From Candidatus Parcubacteria bacterium (GTDB taxonomy: Bacteria; Patescibacteriota; Minisyncoccia; UBA6257; JAGOQP01), in the NCBI GenBank assembly GCA_025999395.1, contig AP024682.1, positions 301,638 to 365,637 of the forward strand: DNA of 64,000 bases, read 5' to 3'. The notes beneath the pieces were generated by a model that made no database searches, was not told the origin of the DNA, and worked only from the letters and a program-made list of their open reading frames with translations. Each line of letters starts with the position of its first letter. The first letter of the stretch is position 1. The position numbers and the translations under genes are program-made. Positions 3,228-63,216 of this stretch are shown here, in pieces.

Positions 3228-4031
3228 TTATGGCTTAATAACACATTCTCCTGTTCCAGAAGCAATCGAACCACAAAGACGATTAGTGGGTGAGATTATT
3301 AAGGAGGAATATAAAGTTCCTGTAGCATTTACACAGGTTCCAGTAGGTGTTCTATAACTTTGGTAAGAACGATTAGCCATTAAAGAAGAGCCAGAATCAT
3401 TATAAACACATGAAGGATAATTATTATAATCTCTTCCCCCTCTCCAGAAAGCTTTTTGATTATGATTTAAAGAAAGACAGTAATAGTAAGAAGGAACTCC
3501 AGCATTATTTCCTGTATAACCTTCTGTTGCGCTAAGTGTTGGCATAGTATAGAAGCCGTTATTTGGAAGATAAACAGTTCCAGAACAATTAGTTGAGGAA
3601 TAATACCATGTAGAAGAAGCTCTTCCTTGAAAGGTGCTGCAATCTCCGGTTATCATATGCTTTTTTTGAAAGTTATTGATATATATTGTGCTATCACAAA
3701 AATTATCTGTTCCGGAGTCATAAAGAAGAACATTATTGGTTGGCATATAATCATATGAATTTCTTTCTCCGAAAATAACAATGGCGATTGTATTTAAAGT
3801 TTGTCCTCCAGCATTAATTCTGCCCCAAAAATCATAAATTCCAAGTACTCCTCCTATTCCTCCAAACTTTCCTACTAGCGTTGTTCCATCTGATTGGTAT
3901 ACATTTAATCGTTTATCGTAAATTGTATAAGAGAAAACTAGATGAGAAAAGAAAATAAAGGTTAAAATAAGGAAAAATAAAAAAATATATCTGATTTTTT
4001 TATTATCTATAAACTTTTTTTTAAATAACAT
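3228..4031 (-). CDS. Secreted/membrane-anchored Cys-rich protein; paralog of the C-terminal domain of the adjacent pilin-like protein
   Basis: Has an N-terminal hydrophobic anchor. Residues about 40-267 align with the C-terminal ~250 aa of ORF 4040..5965, for example LNVYQSDG, KHMITGDCSTFQGRASSTWYYS, YCLSLNHNQKAFWRGG and the ending NRLCGSIASGTGECVIKP. Confidence 0.6.
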   Translation of the reverse strand: MLFKKKFIDNKKIRYIFLFFLILTFIFFSHLVFSYTIYDKRLNVYQSDGTTLVGKFGGIGGVLGIYDFWGRINAGGQTLNTIAIVIFGERNSYDYMPTNNVLLYDSGTDNFCDSTIYINNFQKKHMITGDCSTFQGRASSTWYYSSTNCSGTVYLPNNGFYTMPTLSATEGYTGNNAGVPSYYYCLSLNHNQKAFWRGGRDYNNYPSCVYNDSGSSLMANRSYQSYRTPTGTCVNATGTLYSSLIISPTNRLCGSIASGTGECVIKP

Positions 4032-4039
4032 AAAATATT

Positions 4040-5965
4040 TTAAGGCTTAATAACACACTCTCCTGTGCCAGAAGCAATTGAGCCACAAAGGCGATTAGTG
4101 GGCGAGATTATTATTCCATTATATAAAGTTCCGGTAGCATTAATACAGGTTCCAGTGGGGGTTCTATAACTTTGATAAGAACGATTAGCCATTAAAGAAC
4201 CTCCATAATCGTTATAGAAACATGAAGGTGTATCTTGATAACGATATTCTCCTGGTGGATTACAGTATTTAAGATATGTACTATAACCGCCTCTCCAGAA
4301 AGCTTTTTGATTATGATTTAAAGAAAGACAGTATAAATAGTAGTTGTTTGCGTTATTGTTTATATCTGTACAAACATCATCTCCCCACCCTTCCCAGCCA
4401 CTATTAACTGCCATTTGGAATAAACTATTAATATAAACTGAACCGGTACAATTTGTTCCTGAATAATACCATGTAGAAGAAGCTCTTCCTTGAAAAGTGC
4501 TACAATCTCCGGTTATCATATGCTTTATTTGATTAGTTGATGAGGAAAGGTAGACGGTAAAATCACAAAGATTATCTACTACTCCACTGTAAATAAGAGC
4601 TTGATTAGTTGGCATCCCATTAGAAGAATCCCTTGTTGAATAAACAGCTCGGGCTTGTTGAGAGTTTCCAGCAGCAGTAAAATCATAAAGAATTGGTCTT
4701 CCTAGATCAATTAACTGTCCCACCAAATTTAATCCATCTGACTGATAAACATTTAAAATTCCTTCACCTACTGAATTATCAACATATCCTTTTGTTGCTA
4801 CATCGCTACTGGCAGTTGGAGAGGCGACATTGGTGATTTTGTAAGTAGGAGTTGCTCCCGAAAGCTTGATGTTGCCTGCTACCTCTAGCTTTTCTCCCGG
4901 TGTTCCTGTTCCAATGCCGACATTACCCGAGGCATCAATTTTTATTCCTCTTGCTGAACTACTCCATTGGCCGATCATAAGACTACCAGTATTTGATCCT
5001 CCCGATCCATAATAAATAAGACCAATATCTCCTGCTGATGACATTGGATTATATCCACCACTACCCAATTCAGCAATTGAAAATATTCTTGCCCCCCCAT
5101 CATCTCTTAAAAGAAGACCAATTTCGTTGGCATTTGAAGTATAAATATCTAATTTTGTTCCTCCTGCTGGAGTTGCTACTCCAATCCCAACATTGCCACT
5201 AACAATTAATCCGTTGGAGGGGGCGGTGTTAACTCCAGCATAACTTCCAATGGCTACTCCGCCGGCAACATCAAGTTTGTTTAAAAGAGTAGTCACACCA
5301 ATACCAACATTTCCAGAGAAGGAAGCATTCTTCCAGCGGTTCGAGGTTCCCACAGAGTAGGTATTGTCAACTCCGGGAATTAAATCAGAATCAAAGGTGG
5401 CTGCAGAAACACGAGAAACAGCAGAGCGCAAAGAACGGCGAATAGTGCTTCCCTCCACTTTATTAGCGGCTGACATTGCTAAATCGATTTGAACAATATC
5501 TTTGCCGGGGTATTGGGTAAGTTTCTTAAATTCAAGAGAATCAATAACAACTTTATCGCTGGTAATGGATTGAGGAGTACCACTGGCTCCTTCTTTTACA
5601 TAAATTCTGCCATTTTCCAAATAAATAGTAGTGGGATCAACGGCGCTATCTTTCATTCTTAGAGTTAAAGAGGTGGTTGGTGTGCCGGGAGTTATATCTA
5701 CCAAACTTGAGTTTCTAATAAGCCTTTGAATAGTTTGCATAGCAAAATTAAGCTGTCCTGAAATTTCTACTTGAGCGCTTTGTTCGGTTTGCACTTTGGT
5801 GACGCTTAAGAAAATGCCGGTAGCAACTGAGGCAACAATTCCCAAAATTCCTACATAAATAAGCATCTCCATCAAGGAAAATCCCTGATTGTTTTTGAAA
5901 AAACAAGAAGCAGAGGTTTTTTTCATGTTTTTAAAACCTTCTTTTTTAATTACATTGGGAGACAC
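4040..5965 (-). CDS. Large type IV pilin-like protein with Gly-rich fibre-like repeats and a Cys-rich C-terminal (putative adhesin/lectin-like) domain
   Basis: Has a class III signal: MKKTSASCFFKNNQG then FSLMEMLIYVGILGIVA, with Glu at +5 (the prepilin peptidase motif). The likely true start is the Met at about 5926. Repeated GNVGIGV...KLDV units resemble tail-fibre/glycoprotein repeats. The C-terminal domain is duplicated in 3228..4031. Confidence 0.65.
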   Translation of the reverse strand: MSPNVIKKEGFKNMKKTSASCFFKNNQGFSLMEMLIYVGILGIVASVATGIFLSVTKVQTEQSAQVEISGQLNFAMQTIQRLIRNSSLVDITPGTPTTSLTLRMKDSAVDPTTIYLENGRIYVKEGASGTPQSITSDKVVIDSLEFKKLTQYPGKDIVQIDLAMSAANKVEGSTIRRSLRSAVSRVSAATFDSDLIPGVDNTYSVGTSNRWKNASFSGNVGIGVTTLLNKLDVAGGVAIGSYAGVNTAPSNGLIVSGNVGIGVATPAGGTKLDIYTSNANEIGLLLRDDGGARIFSIAELGSGGYNPMSSAGDIGLIYYGSGGSNTGSLMIGQWSSSARGIKIDASGNVGIGTGTPGEKLEVAGNIKLSGATPTYKITNVASPTASSDVATKGYVDNSVGEGILNVYQSDGLNLVGQLIDLGRPILYDFTAAGNSQQARAVYSTRDSSNGMPTNQALIYSGVVDNLCDFTVYLSSSTNQIKHMITGDCSTFQGRASSTWYYSGTNCTGSVYINSLFQMAVNSGWEGWGDDVCTDINNNANNYYLYCLSLNHNQKAFWRGGYSTYLKYCNPPGEYRYQDTPSCFYNDYGGSLMANRSYQSYRTPTGTCINATGTLYNGIIISPTNRLCGSIASGTGECVIKP

Positions 5966-9673: not shown

Positions 9674-9723
9674 TTTATTTTTTAAATTTAGATTTTTTAA
9701 AAAAGTTTTAAAAGGATAGGAAG

Positions 9724-9794
9724 AGCGAGTGAGGGGAATCGAACCCCCGCCTGTTCCTTGGGAAGGAACTGTTCTACCACTAAACTACACTCGC
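9724..9794 (-). tRNA. tRNA-Gly (anticodon CCC)
   Basis: A manual cloverleaf works on the minus strand. Acceptor GCGAGTG/CACTCGC, D-stem GTTT/GAAC, anticodon stem GTTCC/GGAAC with loop TTCCCAA, and T-loop TTCGATT. No encoded CCA. Confidence 0.8.
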
Positions 9795-11543: not shown

Positions 11544-11554
11544 TTTAAAAGGTA

Positions 11555-11915
11555 GAGATAAGCGGGTAGTTGCTCTAATCCTTTTGGATTAGAGAGGAAA
11601 GTCCGGACACCCTACCTTGATTTTTCAAGGTACAAACGCCTCCGCTAACAGCGGACCGCCGAAAGGCGAGAGGTGCGAACAGAGACGTCGAAAACAGCAA
11701 TGTTTTCGACATCCAAAGATTTTTCTTTGGATGAGTCCTGATGGTAACATCAGGGGTGAAACGGCTAAATCCTGGCGGGGTGCAAGACCGTGCCTTTTCT
11801 GCAGTTTTTGCAGAAAAGGAGAGTCGCTTGAGCCTGAGAGCAATCGATGGCCCAGATAAATAACTACCACTCTGATTTTTTCAGAGTACAGAATCCGGCT
11901 TACAGCTTATCTCTA
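11555..11915 (+). ncRNA. rnpB: RNase P RNA (bacterial type)
   Basis: Contains the universally conserved GAGGAAAGTCCGGAC (P4 5' strand) and ACAGAATCCGGCTTA (P4 3' strand). A P1 helix closes the molecule (agagataagc at the 5' end pairs with gcttatctct at the 3' end). Confidence 0.9.
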
Positions 11916-11978
11916 CTTTTTTTATTTTTAAAAGTTGTTTGTTGGTGATTTTTGCTTTATAGTGTATTTTAGAAAAAT

Positions 11979-17871: not shown

Positions 17872-17972
17872 ATACCTTTTGGTTATTAGTTGCCATTAGC
17901 TGCTGGCTATCAATTGAATAACTTAAAAAATTACTCTTTGTGTTTGTGGAAGGTAGAAAATGTACTAATTAG

Positions 17973-18043
17973 CTGCGGGGCTAGGATTCGAACCTAGATA
18001 CCAGCGTCCAGAGCGCTGTGTCCTACCATTAGACGACCCCGCA
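17973..18043 (-). tRNA. tRNA-Gln (anticodon CUG)
   Basis: Acceptor UGCGGGG/CCCCGCA with a U1-A72 pair and G73 discriminator, as in bacterial tRNA-Gln. Anticodon stem CAGCG/CGCTG with loop CTCTGGA. T-arm CTAGG-TTCGAAT-CCTAG. Confidence 0.8.
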
Positions 18044-51986: not shown

Positions 51987-52087
51987 CTTTTTGATTTTTT
52001 TTTACAATAGAGAGCGGCTGTTTTGGAGAGTTCTCATGGTGGTCTAGCCCCGAAGGGGACCCTTCGGGTTGCGCGTTATTGTGAAGA

Positions 52088-52361
52088 ATGAGGTATTTTC
52101 GTTTATTTTCTTAAAAGTGAAAGTACTGGAAGATTTTACATAGGATGTACGCGGGATATTGATAAAAGATTGAGATATCATAATAGTGGTAAAAATAAAT
52201 CAACCAAACCATACAGGCCTTGGAAGTTAATCTACTTTGAGAGTTATGATAGTATAAAAGATGCTTATAGGAGAGAGTGGTATTTAAAACATTCTAAGGG
52301 GTATTTAGAAAAAAAGGTTTATAATAAAAAAATATGGAGGAGGGTTCGCATAGTGGTCTAG
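52088..52361 (+). CDS. GIY-YIG nuclease family protein (YhbQ-like), interrupted by a +1 frameshift in a T-run
   Basis: ATG at 52088 reads MRYF, then shifts at tattttcg. The continuation reads VYFLKSESTGRFYIGCTRDIDKRLRYHNSGK...RPWKLIYFESY, the classic GIY...YIG...R...N pattern. The 3' end runs into the tRNA-Ser 5' end. Confidence 0.55.
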
Positions 52362-52428
52362 TGCGCGGCTCTGGAGAAGCCGTAGGTCCGAAAGGGCCTC
52401 GTGGGTTCGAATCCCACCCCCTCCGCCA
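52336..52428 (+). tRNA. tRNA-Ser (anticodon GGA), class II with a long variable arm
   Basis: Anticodon stem CGGCT/AGCCG with loop CTGGAGA. Variable arm TAGGTCCGAAAGGGCCTCG. T-arm GTGGG-TTCGAAT-CCCAC. 3' GCCA is encoded. There is one A-C mismatch in the acceptor stem as drawn, so the exact 5' end is uncertain. Confidence 0.7.
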
Positions 52429-52441
52429 GTTGGAAAAAGAA

Positions 52442-52540
52442 GGTTGCTGGCTCGCCCTCTGCGAGGGCTCGCCAGCCGATTTTAGGCGCAAAATTGAATT
52501 TTTTGTCTTTCAAAATAAAGTTCGAGCCGACATTTTTTAG
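52442..52540 (+). repeat. Island-flanking direct repeat, copy 1 (att-like)
   Basis: About 75% identical to 63051-63160 in the same orientation (shared ttgctggct, ctctgcgaggg, and aattttttgtcttt...ttcga.c.gacattttt). An inverted partial copy lies at 53887-53957. Confidence 0.6.
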
Positions 52541-53834
52541 AAATTCCCGGATTTGATAATTGTCGCCCTGCGACAATAGAATTTTGGCTTGTTTCTGCCT
52601 CAAAAATCATTTCTTTCATCGGTTCGAGCCAATTATTTCCCGATTGTTCAAAATCTCTGATTTTCTGCTCAATATCCAGTTTTTCGTTGAGCAGTTTTTG
52701 TTTCTTGGCTTGGTATTCTCCAAGTGTCAAAGCTCCTGCCGGCGATATAGAGGTCTAACAGTTTTTCAATTTTCTGCTCAACTCTCTGCCTTTTGCTCGC
52801 TGGAGATTTTGAACAATAATTTCGCTTTCTCTTTTCAGCTTGCTCTTTTTCTTTGTCTAACTCCAAAATCATATTTTCCGCCCACTCATCAGGCAAAGAA
52901 ACCTTTTTGAATAAAATCTCTTCATCTGCTCAACAAGGTTTTCTTCCCTTAAATACCTTTCATCGCATTTTTGCTTTTTCTTGGTGCACCGGTAGTAGTT
53001 ATGCCCTTTTTGCTTTTCAGCGGTTATCATACAGCCGCAATTTCCGCAACGCATAAAGCCGGAAAAAGCAAATTCATGCTTTCTTTTTCTCTTTTTCTTG
53101 CCTCGGTTATTCATTACTTGCTGGACAGAATCAAAAAGTTTCTTGGAAATAATTGGCTCGTGAGCTTCCCTGATAAACTTCTCCGTTAAACTTAAAAACT
53201 CCGTAGTAGAAATGATTTTTGAGCATTCGCTGGACACAGGAAACAGAGAGCGGTTTGTTGCGGTAGCTTGTTATTCCGCTGTCCGCCAAAAACTGCTTTA
53301 TGGCTTTTAGGGTATAGTCGCCGGTGGCGTAAAGCTCAAACGCTTTTCTGATAAACGGTGCTTTGCCTTTGTCCAAATCTATTTCTTTTGTCATGGTGAT
53401 TATTAAGATAGCCAAGCGGAGCAAAGCCTGGCCAAATTCCTTTTCGCAGTTTTTAGCGGTGTCCTCGCTTGATGTTTTCTGAAAGGTTGTCAACATAATA
53501 CTTGCTTTGCCCAAAAGCGATGGAGAGCATAAATTTTCCCTGCGGCGTGTTTTCAAACCTGAAAGTCGGAAATTTCAAATCTAAAATTTTTCCTGTGTCC
53601 AGCAGATAAATGATTTTCCCGCCGTCAACAGAATTTCTTGCTAACCTGTCCGGGTGCCAAGCCAAAATTCCGCTGGCTTCGCCGAGCGCAAATCCGGTCT
53701 AACATTTCTCCGAAAACTTTTCGGCCAGGTTCCTTGGCGGCAAATTCTTTTAGCTCAGCAAGCTGAGCTTCAATAGACAAAACCTGCTTTTCTTCTGAAT
53801 CTGTTGATTTTCTGCAATAGATAAAGTATTTCAT
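52482..53834 (-). pseudogene. Large serine recombinase, decayed copy (multiple frameshifts)
   Basis: Five overlapping minus-strand ORF fragments align in order to the intact recombinase at 55945..57537. Matching segments include MKYFIYCRKSTDSEEKQ, AWHPDRLARNSVDGG...FGQSKYY..NLSENIKRGHR, HEPII.KKLFD.VQ and MRCGNCGC...GHNYYRCTK. Confidence 0.8.
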
Positions 53835-53858
53835 AATCCCTCTTTGGTTAAAAATTTA

Positions 53859-54152
53859 GAAAAGCCCGCTTCTGGCGTCCCGCTTTGCGGAACAAAGACA
53901 AAAAATTCAATTTTGCGCCTAAAATCGGCTGGCGAGCCCTCGCAGAGGGCGAGCCAGCAACCTCTTTTTCTGACTGGCGATGTGTATTGGAAAAAATCCG
54001 AACTGATTTTATTAACGGGCTCGGCTGGCGGAAGGCAAAGACCGACCCCACTTTCCGCCCGCCTCGCCCTGAACCGGAAGCGAAAAGGCAAACCGCCAAA
54101 GAACCTGAAAAAATGTCGGCTCGAACTTTATTTTAGTCAGAAGCGGGCTTTT
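53859..54152. mobile_element. MITE-like non-coding element (~294 bp) with 16-bp terminal inverted repeats
   Basis: TIRs gaaaagcccgcttctg (53859-74) and cagaagcgggcttttc (54137-52). The interior shares blocks with the repeats at 52442-52540 (inverted) and 55900-56040. Confidence 0.5.
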
Positions 54153-54231
54153 CTTTACTGAATTGAAATTTTTTGATATCATATATTTGAAATCACCCTT
54201 TATGGTTTAATGATATCAAAGTTTTGAAACT

Positions 54232-54429
54232 ATGGCAACAATAGGCGAAAATATCAAAAAATACCGCAACAAACTTGGCTTAACGCAGGACGATTTGGTG
54301 AGAAAGTCTGGTGTAAAACACACTACCCTTACCAAAATAGAGGGCGATTTTGTTAAAAAACCGAGCGTTCAAATTATGGCCAAAATTGCCAAAGCATTAG
54401 GCGTTTCGGTTGAGGATTTATTGAAATAA
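54232..54429 (+). CDS. XRE-family helix-turn-helix transcriptional regulator
   Basis: 65 aa. IKKYRNKLGLTQDDLVRKSGVKHTTLTKIE is a Cro/CI-type HTH. Confidence 0.8.
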   Translation: MATIGENIKKYRNKLGLTQDDLVRKSGVKHTTLTKIEGDFVKKPSVQIMAKIAKALGVSVEDLLK

Positions 54430-54430
54430 T

Positions 54431-54793
54431 ATGGAACTGATTTTTCATGAAATTTTTAGAGCACTTGGCTACCTGTTAATCGCAGGTGTTGTGTTGTTTG
54501 CTTGGAAGACAGCACGCGACAACTCAAAAGACGGAAAACTTAAAGAAGTTTTATGGAAAGGACTTTTGTGGTGTGCTGGGATTGCTTTATTCGCGAGCTT
54601 CACTTTAGGAAATCCCTCTTGTATAGAACAATCTGATCCAGTATATGGCGGTTGCGAACAATATGCTGATGATGGTTTTGAGCCAACCACCGAACAAAGA
54701 GTCGCAAATTTTGCTTACTTCATGACGCTGTTATATATTCCTGTCGTTTTTGGTGCTTTCAGTGGTAATAAATTAACAACGAACAAAGAATAA
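54431..54793 (+). CDS. Hypothetical membrane protein (island cargo)
   Basis: 120 aa, three predicted TM helices and Cys residues. The start is 2 nt after the HTH gene stop. Confidence 0.35.
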   Translation: MELIFHEIFRALGYLLIAGVVLFAWKTARDNSKDGKLKEVLWKGLLWCAGIALFASFTLGNPSCIEQSDPVYGGCEQYADDGFEPTTEQRVANFAYFMTLLYIPVVFGAFSGNKLTTNKE

Positions 54794-54794
54794 T

Positions 54795-55505
54795 ATGGAA
54801 ATATTTCGTTTTATATTTTCAATTATTTTCGCCCCAATCAGATGGTTGGCAAATTTATTTACTCAACGAAAGGACAACATTTTAGAGTGGCATTTTAATT
54901 ATGGCCCCTCGTTTATAAAAATTGAAACAAAATACAAAGAGCAATTTTTACCCGATGACTTATTGATCGCTGGTTATATCCTATTTTTAGCCCGATATTT
55001 TTTCATCTGCGATGATAGACAAATAGAGGTTGTTAGAAAGTTTCTTTTAAACGAAATCGAAAAATCAAAATCTAATGAGATTACACTAAAGTTGTATGAG
55101 GCCGTTTTTCAAACCTTAAATCAAATGGAAAAAGATGCAACGCTTGGCTTATTCAAAATCTATAATAGATTTTTACCAATGCCACCCCTAACTTTTTCAG
55201 AAGATGAAGAACCGCGTCATTCGTTGGCAAAATATAGTTTCTTAGTTTTTGAGCGTTCCGGCGGCAATGGCTTTGGTCATATCTTCTATATGTCTGCCGG
55301 ACCCGATATTATTTTGCTTCCGCTTACGGTCGGAATTCTATACGAATATGTAGTGAACAAATTGCGAAACAAGGATAAAAAAGAAAAACTAGATAATTCA
55401 ATCATTGATTTATTAAAAGGCCATTCAGCAGTAGATTGTCGCTCTATAGCAGGTCAAACAGAATTGCCAAATGAGGTTATTATTAAAAATAATTTAAACT
55501 ACTAA
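54795..55505 (+). CDS. Hypothetical protein (island cargo)
   Basis: 236 aa with no recognisable motif. Sits in a tightly packed operon. Confidence 0.35.
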   Translation: MEIFRFIFSIIFAPIRWLANLFTQRKDNILEWHFNYGPSFIKIETKYKEQFLPDDLLIAGYILFLARYFFICDDRQIEVVRKFLLNEIEKSKSNEITLKLYEAVFQTLNQMEKDATLGLFKIYNRFLPMPPLTFSEDEEPRHSLAKYSFLVFERSGGNGFGHIFYMSAGPDIILLPLTVGILYEYVVNKLRNKDKKEKLDNSIIDLLKGHSAVDCRSIAGQTELPNEVIIKNNLNY

Positions 55506-55506
55506 T

Positions 55507-55854
55507 ATGGGAATTGTAATTTTTATTATCGGTTTAGTTTTCGGGCTTTTCGCATTTAGCCAAATTATTTATCCGCTTTTCTCGGCTTGGCCTAGAGCGA
55601 AAAAATTAGAGCGCGAAGGAAAATTGAAAAGACCAATTCCGATTTCTACATTTCTAATTGCACCAATTATTTGGGGCGTCCTTATGTGGGCTTCTGTTTT
55701 GGTCATCGGAAAATTTTGGCCTGAAAACTTAAACACTTATTACATAAGTTTGGTGATAATTTTGTTTGTGGTAATTATTCAGATTCCAAAGCAAAACCGA
55801 GATTTAGAAGCGGATTTCAAAGATTCTTGGAAACAGTATTTGAAAGAAGAATAA
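55507..55854 (+). CDS. Hypothetical membrane protein (island cargo)
   Basis: 115 aa with three TM helices. The start is 2 nt after the upstream stop. Confidence 0.35.
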   Translation: MGIVIFIIGLVFGLFAFSQIIYPLFSAWPRAKKLEREGKLKRPIPISTFLIAPIIWGVLMWASVLVIGKFWPENLNTYYISLVIILFVVIIQIPKQNRDLEADFKDSWKQYLKEE

Positions 55855-55944
55855 AAGAATTTGTCGCCAAAGAACAAAATCTGTAAGATTTTGTTAGTGG
55901 GCTACGCCCGCGAAAAACTTGAAATCGTCCTTTTCGCTTCCGCT

Positions 55945-57537
55945 TCAGGGCGAGGCGGGCGGAAGGGGGGTTCGGGGGGAATTCCGCCCGCCGAGCCAAT
56001 CGGTCGCGAAATCGGTTCGGATTTTTTCAAATGCACACCGCCAATATTCAATTTCAGAGTTTTTGAAGGTTCTTGCCTCGCCCTCGCTTCGCTCGGGCTC
56101 GGCAAAAGCAACGATTTTATACGGATTTTTGAAATCAAAAAACAATTTCTGCCCGCTCAAAAGAAAGTTCGAACCAATCTTTTTTAGAAAATCCCGGCTT
56201 TGCTCAGGATTTTCTTGCAAAGTGACAATTTCGGCTTGTTTTACGGAGTTTATGAATTTGGCGGCGAGTTCGAACCGATTATTGCCTTTTTGCTCAAAAG
56301 CCTTCAGTTTGTCTTTCAAAAGTTGTTTTTGATTGACGAGTTTGTTTTTGGCCTCTCTGTATTCATCCAAAGACAAAGCGTTTTCAAGATAAGCGTTCAT
56401 CAGCTTGTCTAACTTTTCGTCAATTGCTTTTATTTCGTTTTCTATCTTTTGAGCAAAAAAGCACGATGATTGGGCTTTTTGTTCTTTTTCTTTTTCAAGT
56501 TCTTTTATCATCCAATCAGCCCAATCATCGGGCAAAGAAACTTTTTGAATCTCCTTTTTGATTTGCTCGGCGATTATTTCTTCGCGAACATATCTTTGAG
56601 AACAAGGGATTTTCCTTTTGGTGCAACGCAAATAATTGTGTCCTTTCTGTGTCTCGGTGGTGATAAAGCAACCGCATTTTCCGCAACGGAACATTCCTCT
56701 GTAAATGTATGGCTTTAATTCTCTTGTCTTTGGTTTGCTTTTTTGTCTCATCACTTCCTGAACTTGGTCAAAAAGTTTCTTTGCGATAATCGGTTCGTGC
56801 TTTCCTTCGTAATATTCGCCGTTGTATCTCATCACTCCGTAGTAAAAAGGATTTTGAAGAAGGTATTGATAATTTGAAACAGAAAGTAATTTACCTTTTC
56901 TTCCTCTCAATCCCAGATTGTTGACAATCTTTCGGATCTCTTTAAGAGCGTATTTGCCGGTGGCGTAAAGCTTAAAGGCTTTTTTGATAAGAGGAGCTTT
57001 TTCTTTGTCTATATAGATTTGTTTTGTCTTGGGGTCGTTGAAGTAGCCAAGAGGCGCCATTTGAGGCCATAGACCTTGTTTTAGTTTTTGGCGATGTCCC
57101 CGCTTTATATTTTCCGAAAGATTGTCAATATAGTATTTTGACTGCCCAAAAGCGATAGACAACATAAACTTTCCTTGAGGCGTGTTTTCAAACCAAAAAG
57201 TCGGGAATTTTAGCTCTTTGATTACTCCGGTATCAACAAGGTAAATTATTTGTCCGCCGTCAACAGAATTACGAGCGAGACGGTCAGGATGCCAAGCCAA
57301 AATCCCTTCTGCTTCGCCCGCTTCAATTCTCTTTAGCATTTCTGCAAAAACAGGTCTTCCCGGCTTCTTGGCAGTTTGTTTTTCAACGAGAACATCAACG
57401 ATTTCCAGATTTTCTTTTTTCGCTAATTCTTTGAGTTCCGCTATTTGGTCCTGAATACTCCTTACTTGCCGATCTTCTGAATCGGTTGATTTTCGGGCGT
57501 AGATGAAAAATTTTCTTGTTTTGTTGTCTTTTTTCAT
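55945..57537 (-). CDS. Large serine recombinase (resolvase domain, recombinase domain, zinc ribbon and coiled coil)
   Basis: The probable start is MKKDNKTRKFFIYARKSTDSEDRQ, with the catalytic Ser in the YARKST motif. Has WHPDRLARN and the zinc ribbon CGKCGC...GHNYLRCTKRKIPC. The ORF track extends the N-terminus to 57609 and the C-terminus into the flanking repeat. The true C-terminus probably lies before about 56190. Confidence 0.8.
   Translation of the reverse strand: MKKDNKTRKFFIYARKSTDSEDRQVRSIQDQIAELKELAKKENLEIVDVLVEKQTAKKPGRPVFAEMLKRIEAGEAEGILAWHPDRLARNSVDGGQIIYLVDTGVIKELKFPTFWFENTPQGKFMLSIAFGQSKYYIDNLSENIKRGHRQKLKQGLWPQMAPLGYFNDPKTKQIYIDKEKAPLIKKAFKLYATGKYALKEIRKIVNNLGLRGRKGKLLSVSNYQYLLQNPFYYGVMRYNGEYYEGKHEPIIAKKLFDQVQEVMRQKSKPKTRELKPYIYRGMFRCGKCGCFITTETQKGHNYLRCTKRKIPCSQRYVREEIIAEQIKKEIQKVSLPDDWADWMIKELEKEKEQKAQSSCFFAQKIENEIKAIDEKLDKLMNAYLENALSLDEYREAKNKLVNQKQLLKDKLKAFEQKGNNRFELAAKFINSVKQAEIVTLQENPEQSRDFLKKIGSNFLLSGQKLFFDFKNPYKIVAFAEPERSEGEARTFKNSEIEYWRCAFEKIRTDFATDWLGGRNSPRTPLPPASP
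56032..56190. repeat. Imperfect terminal inverted repeat, left, of the recombinase element
   Basis: Matches the reverse complement of 57596-57808 over about 125 bp (caccgccaatattcaatttcagagtttttgaaggttcttgcctcgccctcgcttcgctcgggctcggca...). Both inner ends read accaatcttttttag. Confidence 0.6.
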
Positions 57538-57595
57538 AATCGCTTTTGGACAGTTAGTCCCGCTTCGCGGGACAAATTGCCGCTTTGCGTTCCGC

Positions 57596-57808
57596 CAAAG
57601 GCGGAACAAAAAAGATTGGTTAACCCCGCCCTTTTAACAGGAAGGGCGGGGTGTTCGCCTTCGGCGAACCGAACCTCCAAATTCTGGAGCAAAAATTGTT
57701 TTTTGATTTCAAAAATCCCTATAAAATCGTGGTTTCTGCCGAGCCCGAGCGAAGCGAGGGCGAGGCAAGAACCTTCAAAAACTCTGAAATTGAATATTGG
57801 CGGTGTCT
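57596..57808. repeat. Imperfect terminal inverted repeat, right, of the recombinase element
   Basis: See the partner at 56032-56190. It carries an extra insertion of about 50 bp with two GC-rich hairpins. Confidence 0.6.
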
Positions 57809-58090
57809 TTTGGACAAAATTCGAACCTATTTTGAACAAAATCCTGATGCCGACTTCTGATTGTCGCCCTGCGGGCGACAATCCCGCCCCGCGTTTCCGC
57901 ACGGCGTCCGCTTCGTTTCCGCCGAACAAAACAGAAAAATTTTCTAAACATTTATTTAATCGCGCCCCCGACAAAATTTTTTCTATTAAGGAAAAGAAAA
58001 TTTTTCTGTTTTGACATTCTACTAACGCAGAATTGCGGAAACGCTTCCCACCCCCAGTCCCGCTTCGCGGGACAGCAGGCGGGCTATGGT
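57799..58090. repeat. Perfect 292-bp inverted repeat, left copy, flanking the RM/HEPN cassette
   Basis: The reverse complement is identical to 62758-63049 as read by eye over the full length. It contains the hairpins gattgtcgccctgcgggcgacaatc and gtcccgcttcgcgggac. Confidence 0.85.
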
Positions 58091-58161
58091 ATTTTTTATA
58101 TTCGCCCTTGCCCCACCCGTACCGTGCGCGGGCGGTAGAGTAAAACTCCCTAAAAATAATC

Positions 58162-58195
58162 ATAACCTATTTTGGGATATTCTACAATAGGTTAT
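58162..58195 (+). promoter_or_regulatory. C-box-like operator upstream of the controller gene
   Basis: 10-bp inverted repeat ataacctatt / aataggttat with a 14-nt spacer. It ends 18 nt before the C gene ATG. Confidence 0.4.
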
Positions 58196-58212
58196 ACCAT
58201 AAAAATAAAGAT

Positions 58213-58434
58213 ATGCCAAAGTCAATTTATACAAAAGAGTATAAGAAGATCCTCGCACGGCTTAAAAAAGCCAGGCAGGATGCTGGCTTAAAACAGACAG
58301 AGGTCGCCAAAAAGTTAAATAGGCCTCAGTCTTATATTTCAAAAATAGAAAGAGGAGAAAGAAGAATTGATGTAGCAGAACTAAAAGAGTTAGCAAAGAT
58401 TTATAAAAAAGACATAAATTATTTTATTGAATAA
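58213..58434 (+). CDS. Controller (C) protein-like XRE HTH regulator of the RM system
   Basis: 73 aa with HTH LKQTEVAKKLNRPQSYISKIERGERR. Lies 17 nt upstream of the putative endonuclease gene, the classic C-R arrangement. Confidence 0.7.
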   Translation: MPKSIYTKEYKKILARLKKARQDAGLKQTEVAKKLNRPQSYISKIERGERRIDVAELKELAKIYKKDINYFIE

Positions 58435-58451
58435 AAATTAAATCACACAAT

Positions 58452-59426
58452 ATGGGTAAGTATGAAAGAGAACAAATCGAAGAGGCTGAGAAAATAATTG
58501 TTAAGATTATTAATTCTCAGAAGGTGTCCGATTTAGATAAACAAAATCGGTGGTTTAAACATGCGATCGCTATTGCTGAAAGAATTAAAAAGGATTTTCC
58601 CAATATTAAAAAAGCACAACATTTAGGTAATCGTTATGATAATACGGGAGATATATTATTAATTACCTCTGATAAAAGAGAAATTTTTATTGAAGTTAAA
58701 ATGAGCGACACAAGATTAGGTGTGGGGACTAAAGCAAATGTCAGTCAAGATGCGCTTACAGAAAATTATCTTTTTGTGGGCAAAGTTAAAAGTTGGAGTA
58801 AATTTCGCAAGGAGAAAAAACATAATGAGTGGGTTGATAGTTATTTAGACCTTTTTACTAGATATCCAAAAAAGATTTTAAATATCTCAAATTCCATAAT
58901 TAGAAGAGAGGAGAAAGCAAGGTATTTAAGAGGTTTAAAACAAAAAGGAAGTAGAAAAGCCAAAGAAATTCTCGATAAAATTCACGAGAGAGATAAAAAA
59001 GAAAAAATAGAATATTTGGTTTATCTTAGCAAACAACCGCAAAGAGAAGAAATGATTAAAAGATTTTTTATTTTAATTACATTAGGTATCCATAAAAAAG
59101 AAGAATTACAGGCTCTAATAAAAAAAGATAATTTTTTTCAAGAAATTCAAGATCTTTTGGTGTATTATGGGAATTCTTACAATGATAAAATTATTGTAAG
59201 GCAAGAAAACGCAGGTGAGAAAATTAAAAAAGTTCTCGAAGAGTTTTCAGGTTTTAAAATTATCTTTCCTTCCGGAACTACCCACTGTAAATTAGTAGGA
59301 ATAAAGGGAAAGAAAAATATACCTTTATTACAAATAGTTTTACATTGGAAAAATATTGCTCAAGGAATTAAAACTCCGTGCCTTAATATTTTTGATCTAA
59401 CTCCAAAATTTATTAATCCTTATTAA
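58452..59426 (+). CDS. Putative type II restriction endonuclease (PD-(D/E)xK)
   Basis: GDILLITSDKREIFIEVK gives a D...E-x-K catalytic core. It is convergent with the MTase gene, overlapping it by 4 bp. Confidence 0.5.
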   Translation: MGKYEREQIEEAEKIIVKIINSQKVSDLDKQNRWFKHAIAIAERIKKDFPNIKKAQHLGNRYDNTGDILLITSDKREIFIEVKMSDTRLGVGTKANVSQDALTENYLFVGKVKSWSKFRKEKKHNEWVDSYLDLFTRYPKKILNISNSIIRREEKARYLRGLKQKGSRKAKEILDKIHERDKKEKIEYLVYLSKQPQREEMIKRFFILITLGIHKKEELQALIKKDNFFQEIQDLLVYYGNSYNDKIIVRQENAGEKIKKVLEEFSGFKIIFPSGTTHCKLVGIKGKKNIPLLQIVLHWKNIAQGIKTPCLNIFDLTPKFINPY

Positions 59427-61066
59427 TTTGGGTCAATTGGGAATAATTTCTCTAGCTCAGTTTTAGAGATCTGCGTATTTCCTGTAATACTTCTTACCAC
59501 TTTCAATTTCTCTTCCGAGGAAAGCTGTTTAGCAATATCCTTAAGAGTTAAGTTTGTTTTTGGTAAATTTTTTCCGAAATCCATCTTAAGTTGTTCCTGT
59601 TTAGAGGGAGGAAAAATAACATTGACATGGTTTTCAGCAATAAACTTCATTCCCGAAGGGATAACAGCTGCTTTTAGTGTCGCTGTTTTCACTGAACCTG
59701 TGATTCTATTTACAACAATAGCAGGGCCAATATCAAAATCTTTTCTTTTTACATATTGAGGTTTTGTTTTATCTATAATTGGAAATTTTAGTCCTGTTGG
59801 AGTTATATTATGGGCCCATATTAAAGGGATTCCTTCTTCCGGGTTGTTTGTCAATAAATGCTTATTTTGGTTCCAGACTAATCTGCCAGTTTTTACCTCA
59901 TATCCGAGATCATATAGTGTTAATTTATTTTCGAAGGCTTTTTCTAGAAATTTTGGATTTTCGCTAAATATTAAAATTCCATTTTTTTTGAATAAATAGT
60001 TTCCCTTGTTTCTACCTTTTTTAAGGATAATTAGCATTGTTGATTGTAGCGCCCCGTGGAATATTTTAGGGTCATCTAGAATATGTAAATATTCAATATT
60101 GGAATTCTCTACAATAAATTTTCTTAGTTTTAAAAAGTATGCTCCGTTATTCATAGAAGGGGGAACAACATAAGCTAAATATCCTCCTTCTTTTAACCAT
60201 TTTAATCCCTGACAAATGAACAGGCTAAATATGTTTAATCTACCGTTTATAATACTCCCGAATTTTTTTCTTATATTTTCTGGAGGAGTAAATTCAAAAT
60301 AAGGCGGATTACCAATTACAAAGTCATATTTACCATAATCTTCGTTTAAAAGAGCATCTAGCTGTTTGAGTTTTGCTTCAGGAACTACTTCTTTAGCGAT
60401 CTTTACTAGTTTTTTGTCTATATCCCATCCATAAAGTTGAGGGTTTTTGAAATATTTTTTTGCTGTGATTAAAAATTCTCCTGTTCCACAAGCAGGATCT
60501 AGTATTTTTGGGTTTTTAATGTTGGTTGGTAATTTACTAAGGAGTGCTTCTCTTATTGATCTTGGGGTAAAATATTGCCCTAAAGATTTTCTATATTCTA
60601 TATCTGTTTCTTCCATATACCTAATTGTAGCCTCGGTGAATTCCTCTTTTTCTTTTATTTTTTCTTTTAACTCGCCAAAACTTCTAATTACACTTATTAC
60701 TTTTCCTTGAATTATTAATTCTTTTGTAAAAATCGGTTTTATTTTTGGATTTGCTGGTTGAAGCCGGAAACCATTTTTTTCTCTATAAATCTTTTTGAGT
60801 GTAACTTCATTATCATTTATTAGAGCCACTACCGTTTCTCCATTTTCAGCAATTGGTTGTTTCCTAATTATTACGATATCTCCATCGTAAATTCCTTCGT
60901 CAATCATGCTATCTCCTTGAACCCTTAAAGCGTAATGTTCGCCTGATTTAGATAATTGTGATTTGGGAACCTCAATCATTTCAGGATCTTCTATTGCTTC
61001 AATTGGTTGACCAGCAGCAATAGTGCCAAGTAGTGGAATTTCTACTGTCTCTTTCTTTTCTCCCAC
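59423..61066 (-). CDS. Fusion protein: LexA-like S24 autopeptidase domain plus N6-adenine DNA methyltransferase (gamma-class, TaqI/Eco57I-like)
   Basis: The N-terminal 130 aa read IPLLGTIAAGQP (the Ala-Gly cleavage site), GDSM (Ser nucleophile) and VTLKK (Lys). The C-terminal MTase has QYFTPRSI, ILDPACGTGEFL (motif I) and GNPPYF (motif IV). Confidence 0.8.
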   Translation of the reverse strand: MGEKKETVEIPLLGTIAAGQPIEAIEDPEMIEVPKSQLSKSGEHYALRVQGDSMIDEGIYDGDIVIIRKQPIAENGETVVALINDNEVTLKKIYREKNGFRLQPANPKIKPIFTKELIIQGKVISVIRSFGELKEKIKEKEEFTEATIRYMEETDIEYRKSLGQYFTPRSIREALLSKLPTNIKNPKILDPACGTGEFLITAKKYFKNPQLYGWDIDKKLVKIAKEVVPEAKLKQLDALLNEDYGKYDFVIGNPPYFEFTPPENIRKKFGSIINGRLNIFSLFICQGLKWLKEGGYLAYVVPPSMNNGAYFLKLRKFIVENSNIEYLHILDDPKIFHGALQSTMLIILKKGRNKGNYLFKKNGILIFSENPKFLEKAFENKLTLYDLGYEVKTGRLVWNQNKHLLTNNPEEGIPLIWAHNITPTGLKFPIIDKTKPQYVKRKDFDIGPAIVVNRITGSVKTATLKAAVIPSGMKFIAENHVNVIFPPSKQEQLKMDFGKNLPKTNLTLKDIAKQLSSEEKLKVVRSITGNTQISKTELEKLFPIDPN

Positions 61067-61070
61067 TATT

Positions 61071-61265
61071 TCAATAGACCTGGGTTCGTTTTTTTTCTCT
61101 TTTGATATATCCTTCTTTTTCGAGTCTTAAGAGATGATGATGAATAGTGGATACTGAAGAAAGTCGAAAATGTTTTTTAATTTCTTCTATAGAGGGAGCG
61201 TAACCTCTTTTTTCTTTGAAGGACTTTATAAAATCTAAGACTTGTTTTTGCCGTTTTGTAATCAT
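61071..61265 (-). CDS. LexA-type winged-helix DNA-binding domain, upstream segment of the same LexA-MTase gene, separated by an A8-run frameshift
   Basis: ITKRQKQVLDFIKSFKEKRGYAPSIEEIKKHFRLSSVSTIHHHLLRLEKEGYIKR is the canonical LexA N-domain. Removing one A from the A8 run at about 61085-61092 fuses it in frame with IEIVGEKKETVEIPLLG. Confidence 0.75.
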   Translation of the reverse strand: MITKRQKQVLDFIKSFKEKRGYAPSIEEIKKHFRLSSVSTIHHHLLRLEKEGYIKREKKRTQVY

Positions 61266-61269
61266 AGTA

Positions 61270-61330
61270 TTGACTTTCTATTTATTTTCGATTATACTTT
61301 AAATATAAACAAGACATCTAAAAAAGTCAA
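61270..61330. promoter_or_regulatory. Divergent promoters with a near-palindromic candidate operator
   Basis: Plus strand: TTGACT, 17 nt, TATACT, leading toward the 61357 gene. Minus strand: TTGACT (61330-25), 17 nt, TATATT, leading toward the LexA-MTase gene. A 15-bp near-palindrome TATAcTTTAAAtATA overlaps both -10 elements. Confidence 0.4.
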
Positions 61331-61356
61331 TCAGTCTAATTAATTTATACCCAACC

Positions 61357-61656
61357 ATGGCTACATCAAAACACGATGAAATTGCAAAAAAACTTGCCAA
61401 AAAATTCGGCACAGAATATAAATCTAATGAGGGCATAGATATTGTACTGCCTGATCGCGTTATAGAAGTTGAGACTAAAAAAGACGGAATACGCCAAGGT
61501 ATAAATCAAGTGATAAGATCGTCTAAAGCCAGATATATAGCTGTTAACAAAAAGAATGTACAAAATGCTCTTGACGCCACACAAGGCACCGGAATTGGAG
61601 TAATGAGTGAAACGGGCCATATTATAAAACGCGCCAGCAGAAGCAGGAAGAAGTAA
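61357..61656 (+). CDS. Small PD-(D/E)xK-like (YraN/UPF0102-like) putative endonuclease
   Basis: 99 aa. GIDIVLPDRVIEVETKK fits D-x(n)-E-V-E-x-K. Confidence 0.35.
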   Translation: MATSKHDEIAKKLAKKFGTEYKSNEGIDIVLPDRVIEVETKKDGIRQGINQVIRSSKARYIAVNKKNVQNALDATQGTGIGVMSETGHIIKRASRSRKK

Positions 61657-61681
61657 AAATAAAAGATTTCTAGAAAGTTAT

Positions 61682-62356
61682 ATGGAGGAGATACTTACAA
61701 AAATTAAACAACTAATAGAAGGATTTAGGGATAAATATACAATCAGATTAGAAGAAATTGTTGTTAATGCTGATAAGTTAAAGAAAGCCTGCAGAAGAAT
61801 TGAGCGCTCTTGGAGCGGTTCGTTTGCTGGTTGGCATGGCCGTATGTACTTTCGTGATTTTCAGATTCCATCAATACATGAAAGATTTAGTGGAGAATGG
61901 GGAGGAATACATGGCATACCTGAAGGATGGGAAGAAAAACAGCCTGAAGAAGTACGAGAAAAAATTGAAGAATTAGTTGGTGATGAATTTTCAGCTGATG
62001 ATTTTGAAAAAGAATTAGGGAAGTTAAAAAAAGAGGCAATCCAGCTTAAAGACGAAATAGTAATAACTCTTTCGGTCTTTAATTTTGACACCCACGCTGA
62101 AAAAGAAAAAGAATTATTTTCTCAAATAGAAAATTTTGAATTTGGCAAAACAAAGGGTGAATTTATAAACGATGGGTTGCCAAAAACAATGATGTCAAGA
62201 GATACGGAAGCCTTGCGGCAAGGAATTTGTATCGCTTCGTGGTTGTATTATGAAGGAGTAGCACTTGAAGCTAAGAGTTTTTATGAGGCGATAAATAATT
62301 TTTTCGGATTGGTTAATAAATTAGTAAGGCTACTTGAACAAAAAATCAAAACTTAA
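61682..62356 (+). CDS. Hypothetical protein, likely partner of the downstream HEPN protein
   Basis: 224 aa with no recognisable motif. It overlaps the next ORF by 23 nt, which suggests translational coupling. Confidence 0.35.
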   Translation: MEEILTKIKQLIEGFRDKYTIRLEEIVVNADKLKKACRRIERSWSGSFAGWHGRMYFRDFQIPSIHERFSGEWGGIHGIPEGWEEKQPEEVREKIEELVGDEFSADDFEKELGKLKKEAIQLKDEIVITLSVFNFDTHAEKEKELFSQIENFEFGKTKGEFINDGLPKTMMSRDTEALRQGICIASWLYYEGVALEAKSFYEAINNFFGLVNKLVRLLEQKIKT

Positions 62357-62753
62357 TACTAAAACAATCCATACCATAGATAATCAGTTAAATAATTTGC
62401 ACCAAGAAATATATAATAAATGTTTTGACTTGTATCAAAAGGGGGCATACGCGGAGGCAGTTGAAAAGAGTTTTAAGGTTGTACGAGATAGATTAAGAAA
62501 ATTGACAGGGTATGAGACAGGTTCAGAGGCATTTGGTAAGGGAAAATTACATATTAAGGGTGCTGCTGCTCAAAATGTTGACCAAGATTTTAATGACGCG
62601 GTTAAGTTCTTAACCATGGCAATTGATCGATTCCGCAATGAAAAAAGCCATACCTCAGATGCTAAAATAGATGACCCTGTCCGTGCTTATGAATATTTAA
62701 GACTAAGTAGTCTTGCGATGAATTTACTTGAAGATAGTGAGATTTTGTCGTAG
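62334..62753 (+). CDS. HEPN-like domain protein (TIGR02391-like), putative RNase toxin/abortive-infection component
   Basis: 139 aa. Has RNEKSH (the R-x4-H HEPN motif) near the C-terminus within a predicted helical bundle. Confidence 0.5.
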   Translation: MNKKSKLNTKTIHTIDNQLNNLHQEIYNKCFDLYQKGAYAEAVEKSFKVVRDRLRKLTGYETGSEAFGKGKLHIKGAAAQNVDQDFNDAVKFLTMAIDRFRNEKSHTSDAKIDDPVRAYEYLRLSSLAMNLLEDSEILS

Positions 62754-62757
62754 GCTT

Positions 62758-63049
62758 TACCATAGCCCGCCTGCTGTCCCGCGAAGCGGGACTGGGGGTG
62801 GGAAGCGTTTCCGCAATTCTGCGTTAGTAGAATGTCAAAACAGAAAAATTTTCTTTTCCTTAATAGAAAAAATTTTGTCGGGGGCGCGATTAAATAAATG
62901 TTTAGAAAATTTTTCTGTTTTGTTCGGCGGAAACGAAGCGGACGCCGTGCGGAAACGCGGGGCGGGATTGTCGCCCGCAGGGCGACAATCAGAAGTCGGC
63001 ATCAGGATTTTGTTCAAAATAGGTTCGAATTTTGTCCAAAAGACACCGC
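62758..63049. repeat. Perfect 292-bp inverted repeat, right copy
   Basis: Reverse complement of 57799-58090. Confidence 0.85.
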
Positions 63050-63050
63050 T

Positions 63051-63160
63051 AGTTGCTGGCTTACTCTCTGCGAGGGCGCAAAGAGCGCTCCAGCCAACTT
63101 TGAAGCAGAAATTTAATTTTTTGTCTTTTAAAGTGAAATTCGAACTGACATTTTTAAAAG
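63051..63160 (+). repeat. Island-flanking direct repeat, copy 3 (att-like, diverged)
   Basis: About 75% identical to 52442-52540. It is preceded by aggttcgaat, which resembles a tRNA T-loop remnant. Confidence 0.5.
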
Positions 63161-63216
63161 AGCAGAAATTTTTTAAGAGTAGTGGAAAAGTCAAATCATT
63201 AATTTTAAACAAGCTA

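Follow-up and report, generated by a model that had tools for sequence, protein, structure and literature searches.

Several described systems resemble parts of the locus treated here. In the staphylococcal cassette chromosome (SCC), cassettes driven by the large serine recombinases (LSRs) CcrAB or CcrC sit at the very 3' terminus of rlmH, a conserved housekeeping gene, where they pile up in tandem and bring accessory and defence cargo. Phage serine integrases such as those of A118/LI, Bxb1, phiC31 and SPbeta have the LSR domain architecture, whereas Hin, a small serine invertase, acts on hix sites of 26 bp and depends on an enhancer inside hin to which Fis binds. In mycobacteriophage integration-dependent immunity and in SSV-type split integrases, both of which use tyrosine integrases, the phage attachment site (attP) lies within an open reading frame (ORF) and integration changes the C-terminus of the protein. 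Further islands with tyrosine integrases insert at tRNA 3' ends, accrete in tandem and carry small accessory cargo. The Candidate Phyla Radiation (CPR, Patescibacteria) has tiny genomes, and to our knowledge very few of its mobile elements have been described. Here we analyse an island of 10.7 kb that abuts the 3' end of tRNA-Ser(GGA) in Candidatus Parcubacteria bacterium (assembly GCA_025999395.1, contig AP024682.1, positions 301,638 to 365,637 of the forward strand; this stretch of 64,000 nucleotides is called the window, and all positions count from its first letter). The island holds a decayed LSR (integrase 1), an intact LSR (integrase 2) and two cargo modules, and is very probably a tandem array of LSR elements that target this tRNA gene.

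The closest analogue in behaviour is SCC/Ccr, with which the island shares the LSR at the very end of a conserved gene, the tandem piling-up and the accessory or defence cargo. CcrB is also the best NCBIfam match of integrase 2, with 116.6 bits, which is far under the family cut-off of 900. Unlike SCC, the island targets a tRNA 3' end instead of rlmH, has a single integrase, and has its attP inside the integrase ORF together with a second, inverted attP (P2). Compared with the phage serine integrases, the domain architecture is the same and the site logic looks the same, with a motif that in attP stands 5 bp further away from the core than it does in the bacterial site (attB). However, the identity is at most 30%, the island is without phage genes or a recognisable directionality factor, tRNA T-loop DNA is apparently the zinc-ribbon motif, the attP copies are twinned and inverted, and the tandem arrays imply re-use of occupied sites. 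As in Hin-type invertible segments, inverted recombination sites flank the recombinase gene and its coding sequence contains conserved DNA boxes, reminiscent of the enhancer in hin, but here these belong to an LSR and to the att sites of a mobile element, and inversion is deduced from comparison between genomes only. With its 530-aa LSR and sites that are att copies of 75-400 nt rather than short ones, the locus is not a switch of the Hin/Gin/Pin kind.

The attP-within-gene systems likewise alter the C-terminus of an element-encoded protein; here it is the serine integrase itself that is altered, and a spare inverted native end is retained. The tyrosine-integrase islands belong to another recombinase superfamily. 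In addition, the crossover here lies at the very last tRNA bases, and in place of a direct repeat of the tRNA 3' half there is just a pseudo-T-arm in attP. Membership of the IS607 family is not supported, as the match reaches 31.6 bits against a cut-off of 110 and covers the catalytic domain only. Full-text searches aimed at this architecture returned no description of it, which is weak negative evidence, and the family is widespread in CPR bacteria and apparently undescribed. The locus is of a known kind, a serine-integrase integrative element, and is set apart by the attP in the integrase ORF, the T-loop mimic at the canonical +5 spacing and the conserved inverted spare attP.

Repeats were measured by self-BLAST and repeat finding on the window sequence. 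We call the last ~100-150 nt of an integrase gene a and b, and the sequence that follows them X; a slash marks a junction. The tRNA gene, the three junctions and the units that they delimit are as follows.

52339-52428, plus strand: tRNA-Ser(GGA) (tRNA call and Rfam); its last six bases, CCGCCA (52423-52428), form the B arm of attL and contain the crossover
52428/52429: first junction, tRNA ..CCCTCCGCCA/GTTGG.., followed by b1, a1 and integrase 1
56043/56044: second junction, X1 ..GGTTCGGATTTTTTCAAATGCACACCGCCA/ATATTC.., followed by b2, a2 and integrase 2
63049/63050: third junction, X2 ..GGTTCGAATTTTGTCCAAAAGACACCGC/TAGTTGC.., followed by b3 and a3 without a gene body
52429-56043: element 1, decayed LSR and cargo
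56044-63049: element 2, intact LSR and restriction-modification cargo
63050-63160, minus strand: remnant 3 (b3-a3), a stump left from the 3' end of another, third integrase gene (..FKNVSSNFTLKDKKLNF..), 74% identical to b1-a1

The junctions tRNA/b1, X1/b2 and X2/b3 share one orientation. Their order, tRNA/b1..E1..X1/b2..E2..X2/b3 (E1 and E2 are elements 1 and 2), therefore indicates tandem accretion of element 1, element 2 and a 110-nt stump. An earlier note on this DNA, made from the sequence alone, had proposed that related serine-recombinase elements integrated one after another at the same tRNA site. The three co-oriented junctions, and the same attL and attR beside native DNA in related loci, bear this out, although the elements stand in tandem and are not nested as the note had it.

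All inverted and direct repeats described in that note exist, with coordinates that were slightly generous. At element 1, 52424-52510 is the reverse complement of 53894-53979 (96.5%, E-value 1e-34), and 52512-52538 that of 54108-54134 (100%). At element 2, 56009-56152 is the reverse complement of 57689-57832 (92%, E-value 9e-55). The note saw these inverted repeats as brackets around the recombinases; they are not transposon ends but reflect the second inverted attP copy, which is conserved across the family. The direct repeats of ~100 bp at the island boundaries are also present (52443-52537 and 63052-63155, 74%, E-value 7e-12), but they are the 3' coding ends of integrases (P' arms), and the right-hand one is a gene stump. 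The self-comparison of the window, which the note had proposed for delineating the repeat copies, additionally revealed the strongest repeat of all, a 292-nt inverted repeat of 100% identity (57800-58091 and 62758-63049) around 4.67 kb of cargo.

We compared the island with ~100 related loci, 80 of which (L001-L080) were oriented with the integrase gene on the plus strand. The integrase has 499 confirmed matches in GTDB species genomes and at least 120 protein clusters at 65-89% identity, and those clusters with a named source are almost all from Patescibacteria. An inverted repeat of 75-190 nt flanks the integrase gene in ~60 of the 80 loci and is 100% identical in about half of them. One arm is the integrase gene's own 3' end, and the other lies 40-250 nt upstream of its start. 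A convergent tRNA gene abuts the integrase 3' end in ~43 of 55 scanned loci, with ~5 nt of overlap with arm b; tRNAs for Ser, Gln, Asn, Leu, Glu, His, Gly and Ala are represented. Because the integrase ORF continues into the T-arm on the antisense strand, its tails take forms such as ..WRRGRDSNPR... In most ARAGORN-negative loci the antisense tRNA 3' end is still there, apparently interrupted or truncated.

About 25 loci have a second X copy 0.8-5 kb further upstream, in direct orientation and 92-100% identical to the X of P2. The identity of this far X ends at GCGG or GCTG, and beyond it lies either unrelated native DNA (L010, L011, L020, L051, L069) or a b-like stump (L050, L074, L015). Together with the tRNA/b junctions, these far ends therefore define units of 2.6-6.5 kb with attL = tRNA/b, attR = X/flank and attP = X/b, a scheme with which the junctions in the window agree base for base. 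The tRNA/b, X/b and X/native junctions have only CCGC(CA) or CAG(CCA) in common, which places the crossover around the discriminator base, within the common CCGC at Ser-type sites and within CAG at Gln-type sites. By the same comparison, the terminal CA of tRNA-Ser(GGA) is element-derived and corresponds to the TGG Trp codon of the integrase on the opposite strand. The unoccupied tRNA-Gly and tRNA-Gln genes in the window (9723-9794 and 17972-18043) have no encoded 3' CCA; as stand-ins for an empty tRNA-Ser site they offer an analogy only.

The spacing of a T-loop-like motif tells the two kinds of site apart. X always has the motif A(A/T)ATCCGAAC (integrase strand), 18 nt from the junction, compared with 13 nt for the real tRNA T-loop (GGATTCGAACC). 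This +5 bp offset was found by script in 30 of 41 loci; one locus has +4, and 10 further loci read as +5 by eye after a spurious earlier GAAC match is discounted. In the window, TTCGAAT and CCGCCA are separated by 10 nt in the tRNA, and the spacing is 15 nt in the P2 of element 1 as well as in X1 and X2. The shift is seen on the tRNA-side arm only, and a symmetric motif was not found in the b arm. Rutherford et al. reported that the zinc-ribbon-domain motif in attB lies 5 bp nearer the centre than in attP (PMC3783163), so the offset supports X/b as attP and the tRNA end as attB. The tRNA T-loop DNA is therefore likely the zinc-ribbon-domain motif, which would explain the range of tRNA targets. 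Natural integrases aimed at a near-universal tRNA sequence are of practical interest for genome engineering.

The attP falls inside the integrase ORF, in its final ~18 codons. The native C-terminus, encoded by X, reads ..WRCLLDKIRTYFEQNPDAxF followed by a stop. The codons for its W-R, TGGCGG, read CCGCCA on the other strand, which means that integration swaps out the native last ~18 residues. Among the 60 closest homologues, ~13 have a conserved X-encoded end and stop (..NWRCLLDKIRTYFEQNPDAE[FI]), and the remaining close homologues have unrelated tRNA-antisense tails of variable length; the X-type tails are compatible with circles or tandem arrays. In the window, the b1 tail translates as ..SNWRRGWDSNPRGP, antisense through tRNA-Ser. 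The final 33 codons of integrase 2 cross the junction into X1, and a native-like tail is therefore kept (..WRCAFEKIRTDF..).

Conservation at synonymous sites, taken over 59 genes, peaks at the a box (ATCGGCTCGAAC), at NNRFEL (AATCGGTTCGAAC) and at IAKKLFDQ, with third-position information of 1.0-1.07 bits in these three stretches and a median of 0.46. The a box and the NNRFEL box are T-loop-like at the DNA level, which suggests a constraint acting on the DNA itself. The NNRFEL box (codons ~417-424, window ~56270-56290) and the KKIGSNF box (codons ~452-458, window ~56160-56185) lie ~105 nt apart and may be accessory binding sites or fossil att sites absorbed into the ORF.

From these data we propose that each element would integrate by recombination of attP (X/b) with attB (the tRNA 3' end and the downstream DNA), with the crossover CCGC/CA in the last tRNA bases, to yield attL = tRNA/b-integrase and attR = X/flank. 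Integration would replace the native C-terminus of the integrase with residues translated antisense through the tRNA, and later elements would have recombined at the occupied site to give the present series of junctions. We infer that the integrase catalyses these events at a putative exact core of 2 bp and re-uses occupied attL- or attR-like sites; the tail swap may have a functional consequence. P2 would be a working att site that allows integration in either orientation, or inversion of the integrase or cargo segment. An inversion of the integrase segment would restore the native C-terminus and put the gene downstream of the tRNA promoter.

The reading of P2 as a complete attP starts from the upstream repeat arm. 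Reverse-complemented, it reads b/X, with an X-type (+5) partner in every case. P2 is located between the integrase promoter and a divergent helix-turn-helix (HTH) gene; in 16 related loci an XRE-type HTH gene, divergent from the integrase, is the neighbour of P2. Since P2 is inverted relative to attP, inverted b arms lie on both sides of the integrase segment and inverted X arms on both sides of the cargo. One subfamily, to which element 1 of the window belongs, has the P2 order S'-hairpin-b/X-g-a-S. Here g repeats 20-30 nt from integrase codons ~40-51, the a box of 27 nt encodes KKIGSNF, and S/S' is an inverted pair of 16-35 nt around P2. The near-identity of the arms across deeply diverged lineages is most simply guessed to come from gene conversion. 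Where GTDB loci have the repeat, its partner at the gene end is of the tRNA type and its upstream partner of the X type.

Some loci have other arrangements. In L169, a tRNA-Ser(gga) gene is co-directional with the integrase and upstream of it, followed by b, a hairpin and the integrase (plus strand) with a native tail; this integrase is 81% identical to that of the window, on a megahit k141 contig whose arms are just 101 nt long at 96% identity. In L034 and L168, X comes directly after the integrase 3' end, with a co-directional HTH gene and cargo beyond it, while in L015 the cargo is inverted between the X arms. L065 has a P2-type block, then an HTH gene and co-directional cargo, with a plus-strand integrase, co-directional with the HTH gene, at the far end of the cargo and not beside P2, and in L181 the cargo lies downstream of the integrase in opposite orientation. 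Such variants are the products that would be expected of exchange between inverted att copies, or of integration via P2 instead of the gene-end attP (P1). They are silent on which enzyme acted and how often.

A number of points weigh against the proposal. Under canonical LSR rules attP x attL recombination is barred without a directionality factor (PMC3783163), and tandem accretion needs it. An integrase flipped relative to the tRNA was found in 0 of the 41 GTDB loci with the repeat, so any inversion would be infrequent or strongly skewed, or else the variants in orientation date from integration. RecA recombination between long inverted repeats could yield these variants without the integrase. 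The codon differences between repeat arms (26 synonymous and 41 non-synonymous) hint at weak purifying selection only, and the permuted a and g boxes and the S/S' repeats around P2 have no explanation in the proposed model. Finally, no empty tRNA-Ser(GGA) site was found for this genome (the exact-protein look-up of the integrase was empty, and the Logan contig of the upstream flank, L081, ends before the tRNA), and no circular junction of its elements was recovered in the searched assemblies.

The attP x attL bar and the lack of flipped GTDB loci favour, in particular, an explanation of P2 as an operator or decoy. P2 would then be an intact high-affinity attP through which the integrase, perhaps with the HTH protein via S/S', regulates its own gene, as Tn3 resolvase does at res, and the variants would come from occasional RecA recombination of the repeats. 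The position of P2 fits well, as it fills the very gap that separates the integrase start from the divergent HTH gene and has a palindromic S/S' pair of 16-35 nt around it. On the other hand, a near-perfect identity over 100-400 nt with the full core and both arms exceeds what an operator needs, P2 retains an open reading frame for the native tail, and the alternative orientations are exactly those predicted from exchange at the att core. We regard the operator as a serious but rather unlikely explanation, and P2 as a functional recombination site as a tentative one that falls somewhat short of an even chance. The proposal as a whole, a tandem LSR array at tRNA-Ser(GGA) with attP in the integrase ORF and a working P2, seems to us reasonably probable. 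It is a good deal more speculative, and in our opinion improbable, that a CPR-centred clade of serine integrases replaced the directionality factor by DNA architecture, combining the tail swap, a self-invertible integrase cassette as a self-limiting on/off switch for excision and transfer, and the T-loop zinc-ribbon motif. The three-part design offers a testable case of possible direction control in a serine integrase without a separate factor; no recognisable candidate for such a factor was seen among the island proteins, which include small HTH proteins and ORFs without assigned function.

Another explanation follows the bracketed and nested picture of the earlier note, with the recombinase and its inverted repeats as a transposon like an insertion sequence (IS) in a pre-existing island. 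Many homologues are indeed on ~2-kb contigs bounded by repeats, and the repeats are close to the gene. However, assemblers yield ~2-kb contigs at perfect inverted repeats, and the arms are not insertion boundaries: one lies inside the ORF and abuts the tRNA, and the other runs on into X, which recurs at the far end of the cargo beside native DNA. The cargo belongs to the element, and among the loci compared the integrase was never seen inserted alone between two stretches of native DNA. Likewise, the island is not a miniature inverted-repeat transposable element (MITE) or IS with terminal inverted repeats, as its motifs and hairpins are island-only and its boundaries fall at att junctions and not at repeats; the block 53859-54152, formerly called MITE-like, is the inverted attP copy and not multicopy. 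We consider an IS-like transposon very improbable.

An assembly artefact or a decaying prophage is the least probable explanation of all: perfect inverted repeats do misassemble (L170 is palindromic with 2056-nt arms, and the Logan assembly of DRR290133 breaks at repeat borders), yet the same architecture is found in dozens of independent assemblies and taxa, and phage structural or replication genes were not detected among the island proteins by domain and family profile searches, with just 4 weak matches to the integrase in IMG/VR and no close relative in phage and plasmid collections (identity at most 33%).

Four further ideas about the repeat arms and P2 were considered and rejected. The repeat arms (75-90 nt) are not whole inverted tRNA genes, as an arm ends ~5 nt inside the tRNA and the remainder is integrase coding sequence. 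A palindromic core that permits both orientations would fit Ser-type sites with CG but not Gln-type sites with AG. A single-stranded fold-back attP as in CTX phage was rejected on mechanism, as serine recombinases make concerted double-strand breaks. A P2 block integrated as a mini-circle via its own core does not fit either, as the block is opened at the a/b border and not at the core.

The remaining features of element 1 are listed below.

52429-52510 and 52512-52538, minus strand: b1 and a1; this P' arm doubles as the 3' coding end of the decayed integrase 1 gene (self-BLAST)
~52448-53831, minus strand: integrase 1, LSR pseudogene with several frame changes and stop codons
53860-54155, plus strand: P2 of element 1, the inverted attP copy (self-BLAST, repeat finding)
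54232-55854, plus strand: element 1 cargo, an XRE-type HTH gene (54232-54429) and three ORFs (120, 236 and 115 aa)
55929-56043, plus strand: X1, the far-end P arm of element 1, with a pseudo-tRNA 3' end (GGTTCGGATTTTTTCAAATGCACACCGCCA) and a GC-rich hairpin

Pieces of integrase 1 in frames -1, -2 and -3 are 34-71% identical to integrase 2 by tblastn, with stops in the tail. The claim of one decayed and one intact large serine recombinase is therefore confirmed by these pieces and by the domain matches of integrase 2. The P2 of element 1 has the order S (53860-53875), b' (53894-53979), X' (53980-54088), g-a box (54089-54134) and S' (54140-54155), a layout also found in L050, L020, L011 and L052, and encodes the native integrase tail ..DWRCVLEKIRTDF. 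X1 is 79.5% identical to the reverse complement of 53975-54088. The three cargo ORFs had no family match in domain and family profile searches.

Element 2 is made up of the following features, of which the cargo was annotated by domain and family profile searches.

55945-57537, minus strand: integrase 2, intact LSR of 530 aa, with b2 at 56044-56152 and a2 at 56157-56190
57557-58091, plus strand: upstream region of integrase 2, with GC hairpins (57557-57669) and then P2
58092-62757, both strands: element 2 cargo
58213-58434, plus strand: C-protein-like HTH
58452-59426, plus strand: 324-aa ORF, possibly a nuclease
59423-61066, minus strand: S24 peptidase/N6-adenine methyltransferase
61071-61265, minus strand: LexA DNA-binding part, in a separate frame
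61357-61656 and 61682-62356: two unknown ORFs
62334-62753: Hypoth_Ymh protein
62758-63049, minus strand: X2, the P arm at the far end of element 2; it repeats 57800-58091 perfectly in inverted orientation and ends ..CACCGC at 63049

Integrase 2 is, by its predicted domains, a large serine recombinase, with a resolvase catalytic domain (Resolvase, Pfam: PF00239, E-value 4.5e-21, residues 35-180 of the 554-aa ORF), a Recombinase domain (Pfam: PF07508, E-value 2.1e-17) and a Cys-rich zinc ribbon (Zn_ribbon_recom, Pfam: PF13408, E-value 5.8e-8). The catalytic-serine motif YARKSTDSEDRQ and the zinc-ribbon cysteines (CGKCGC...CTKRKIPC) are seen in the translation. The P2 of element 2 (57689-58091) consists of b2' (57689-57797), the core TGGCGG (57798-57803) and X2' up to 58091. 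It encodes ..EIEYWRCLLDKIRTYFEQNPDADF and a stop, and homologues share this conserved X-type C-terminus. Its X part matches the far end perfectly over 292 nt, in inverted orientation; there X2 encodes WRCLLDKIRTYFEQNPDADF and a stop.

The cargo of element 2 looks like a type II restriction-modification module. Cargo in related loci includes HinfI, TaqI and Pab1 nucleases, Dam-type methylases, ThsB-TIR and EMARD, and the LSR family appears to be a major carrier of restriction-modification and other defence genes in CPR bacteria. A LexA-type repressor (DNA-binding domain and S24 autopeptidase) fused to a DNA N6-adenine methyltransferase is found both in the window (59423-61265, minus strand) and in L181 (4084-5616). 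In the window the LexA DNA-binding part (61071-61265) is out of frame with the remainder, which points to a frameshift or sequencing error; in L181 a single intact ORF has all three domains. At the same position, L034 has a 526-aa ORF (2770-4350) that is S24-like at its start. The fusion hints at a methylase controlled by self-cleavage within the restriction-modification cargo.

DRR290133 is the sole sample in the collection with identical proteins. Its Logan contigs include L082, which equals 58062-62787 (the cargo segment and 30 nt on each side), and L083, which equals 54127-55941; perfect repeats alone would produce such breaks. L081 stops at ~52099. For curators, the architecture explains why CPR assemblies break at tRNA genes and why recombinase-only contigs of ~2 kb occur. 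L170 (JGI Ga0209508_1004595, 7311 nt) is a palindromic contig with perfect arms of 2056 nt, an integrase in each arm and 3.2 kb of cargo in the centre (HTH, Dam-type methylase, ThsB-TIR). We rejected it as a circular form, as the palindrome is an assembler artefact of inverted X arms; contigs of this type should not be taken as gene duplication. L181 has no terminal overlap and was not accepted as a circular form either. The IMG/VR contigs L164 and L165, labelled viral, carry only residues 9-124 of a 70%-identical integrase at the contig end, perhaps because the copies are truncated or because the contigs broke at repeats. A metagenome scan with the gene downstream of the island returned relatives only, with at most 57% identity over most of the protein and no shared synteny.

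L178 has an integrase-less remnant at 2900-3130 with reverse-complement a and g boxes, a long GC palindrome and forward g and a boxes. This block looks like a P2 region minus the att part and the integrase, which suggests that P2 blocks decay into hairpin-rich intergenic DNA. In L027, L036 and L039 a clear antisense tRNA 3' end lies 3' of the integrase, ARAGORN calls no tRNA, and the sequence looks interrupted after the anticodon-side stem. Group I introns have been reported for tRNA genes of Patescibacteria (PMC13011429), and these apparent interruptions are consistent with them.

The window as a whole has ~34% GC and is CPR-like in its content (DUF5652, GroEL, LemA, M48 peptidase, RNase P RNA). 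The GC fraction rises to 0.40-0.43 over the recombinase and att blocks only, compared with ~0.34 in the flanks and 0.30-0.38 in the cargo. The island thus differs in composition from its surroundings, as the earlier note expected, but only locally. The GC-rich palindromes that it mentioned are present, and within the window GC-rich hairpins such as GTCCCGCTTCGCGGGAC are restricted to the island. An Rfam scan of the island returned nothing besides the tRNA. Shortly upstream of tRNA-Ser there is a GC-rich hairpin (~52040-52075), followed by a small ORF (~52081-52319) that is GIY-YIG nuclease-like by eye, and past the island the next host gene begins at 63217. The RNase P RNA, of bacterial class A, is located at 11554-11918 (148 bits) and is an ordinary housekeeping gene unrelated to the island.

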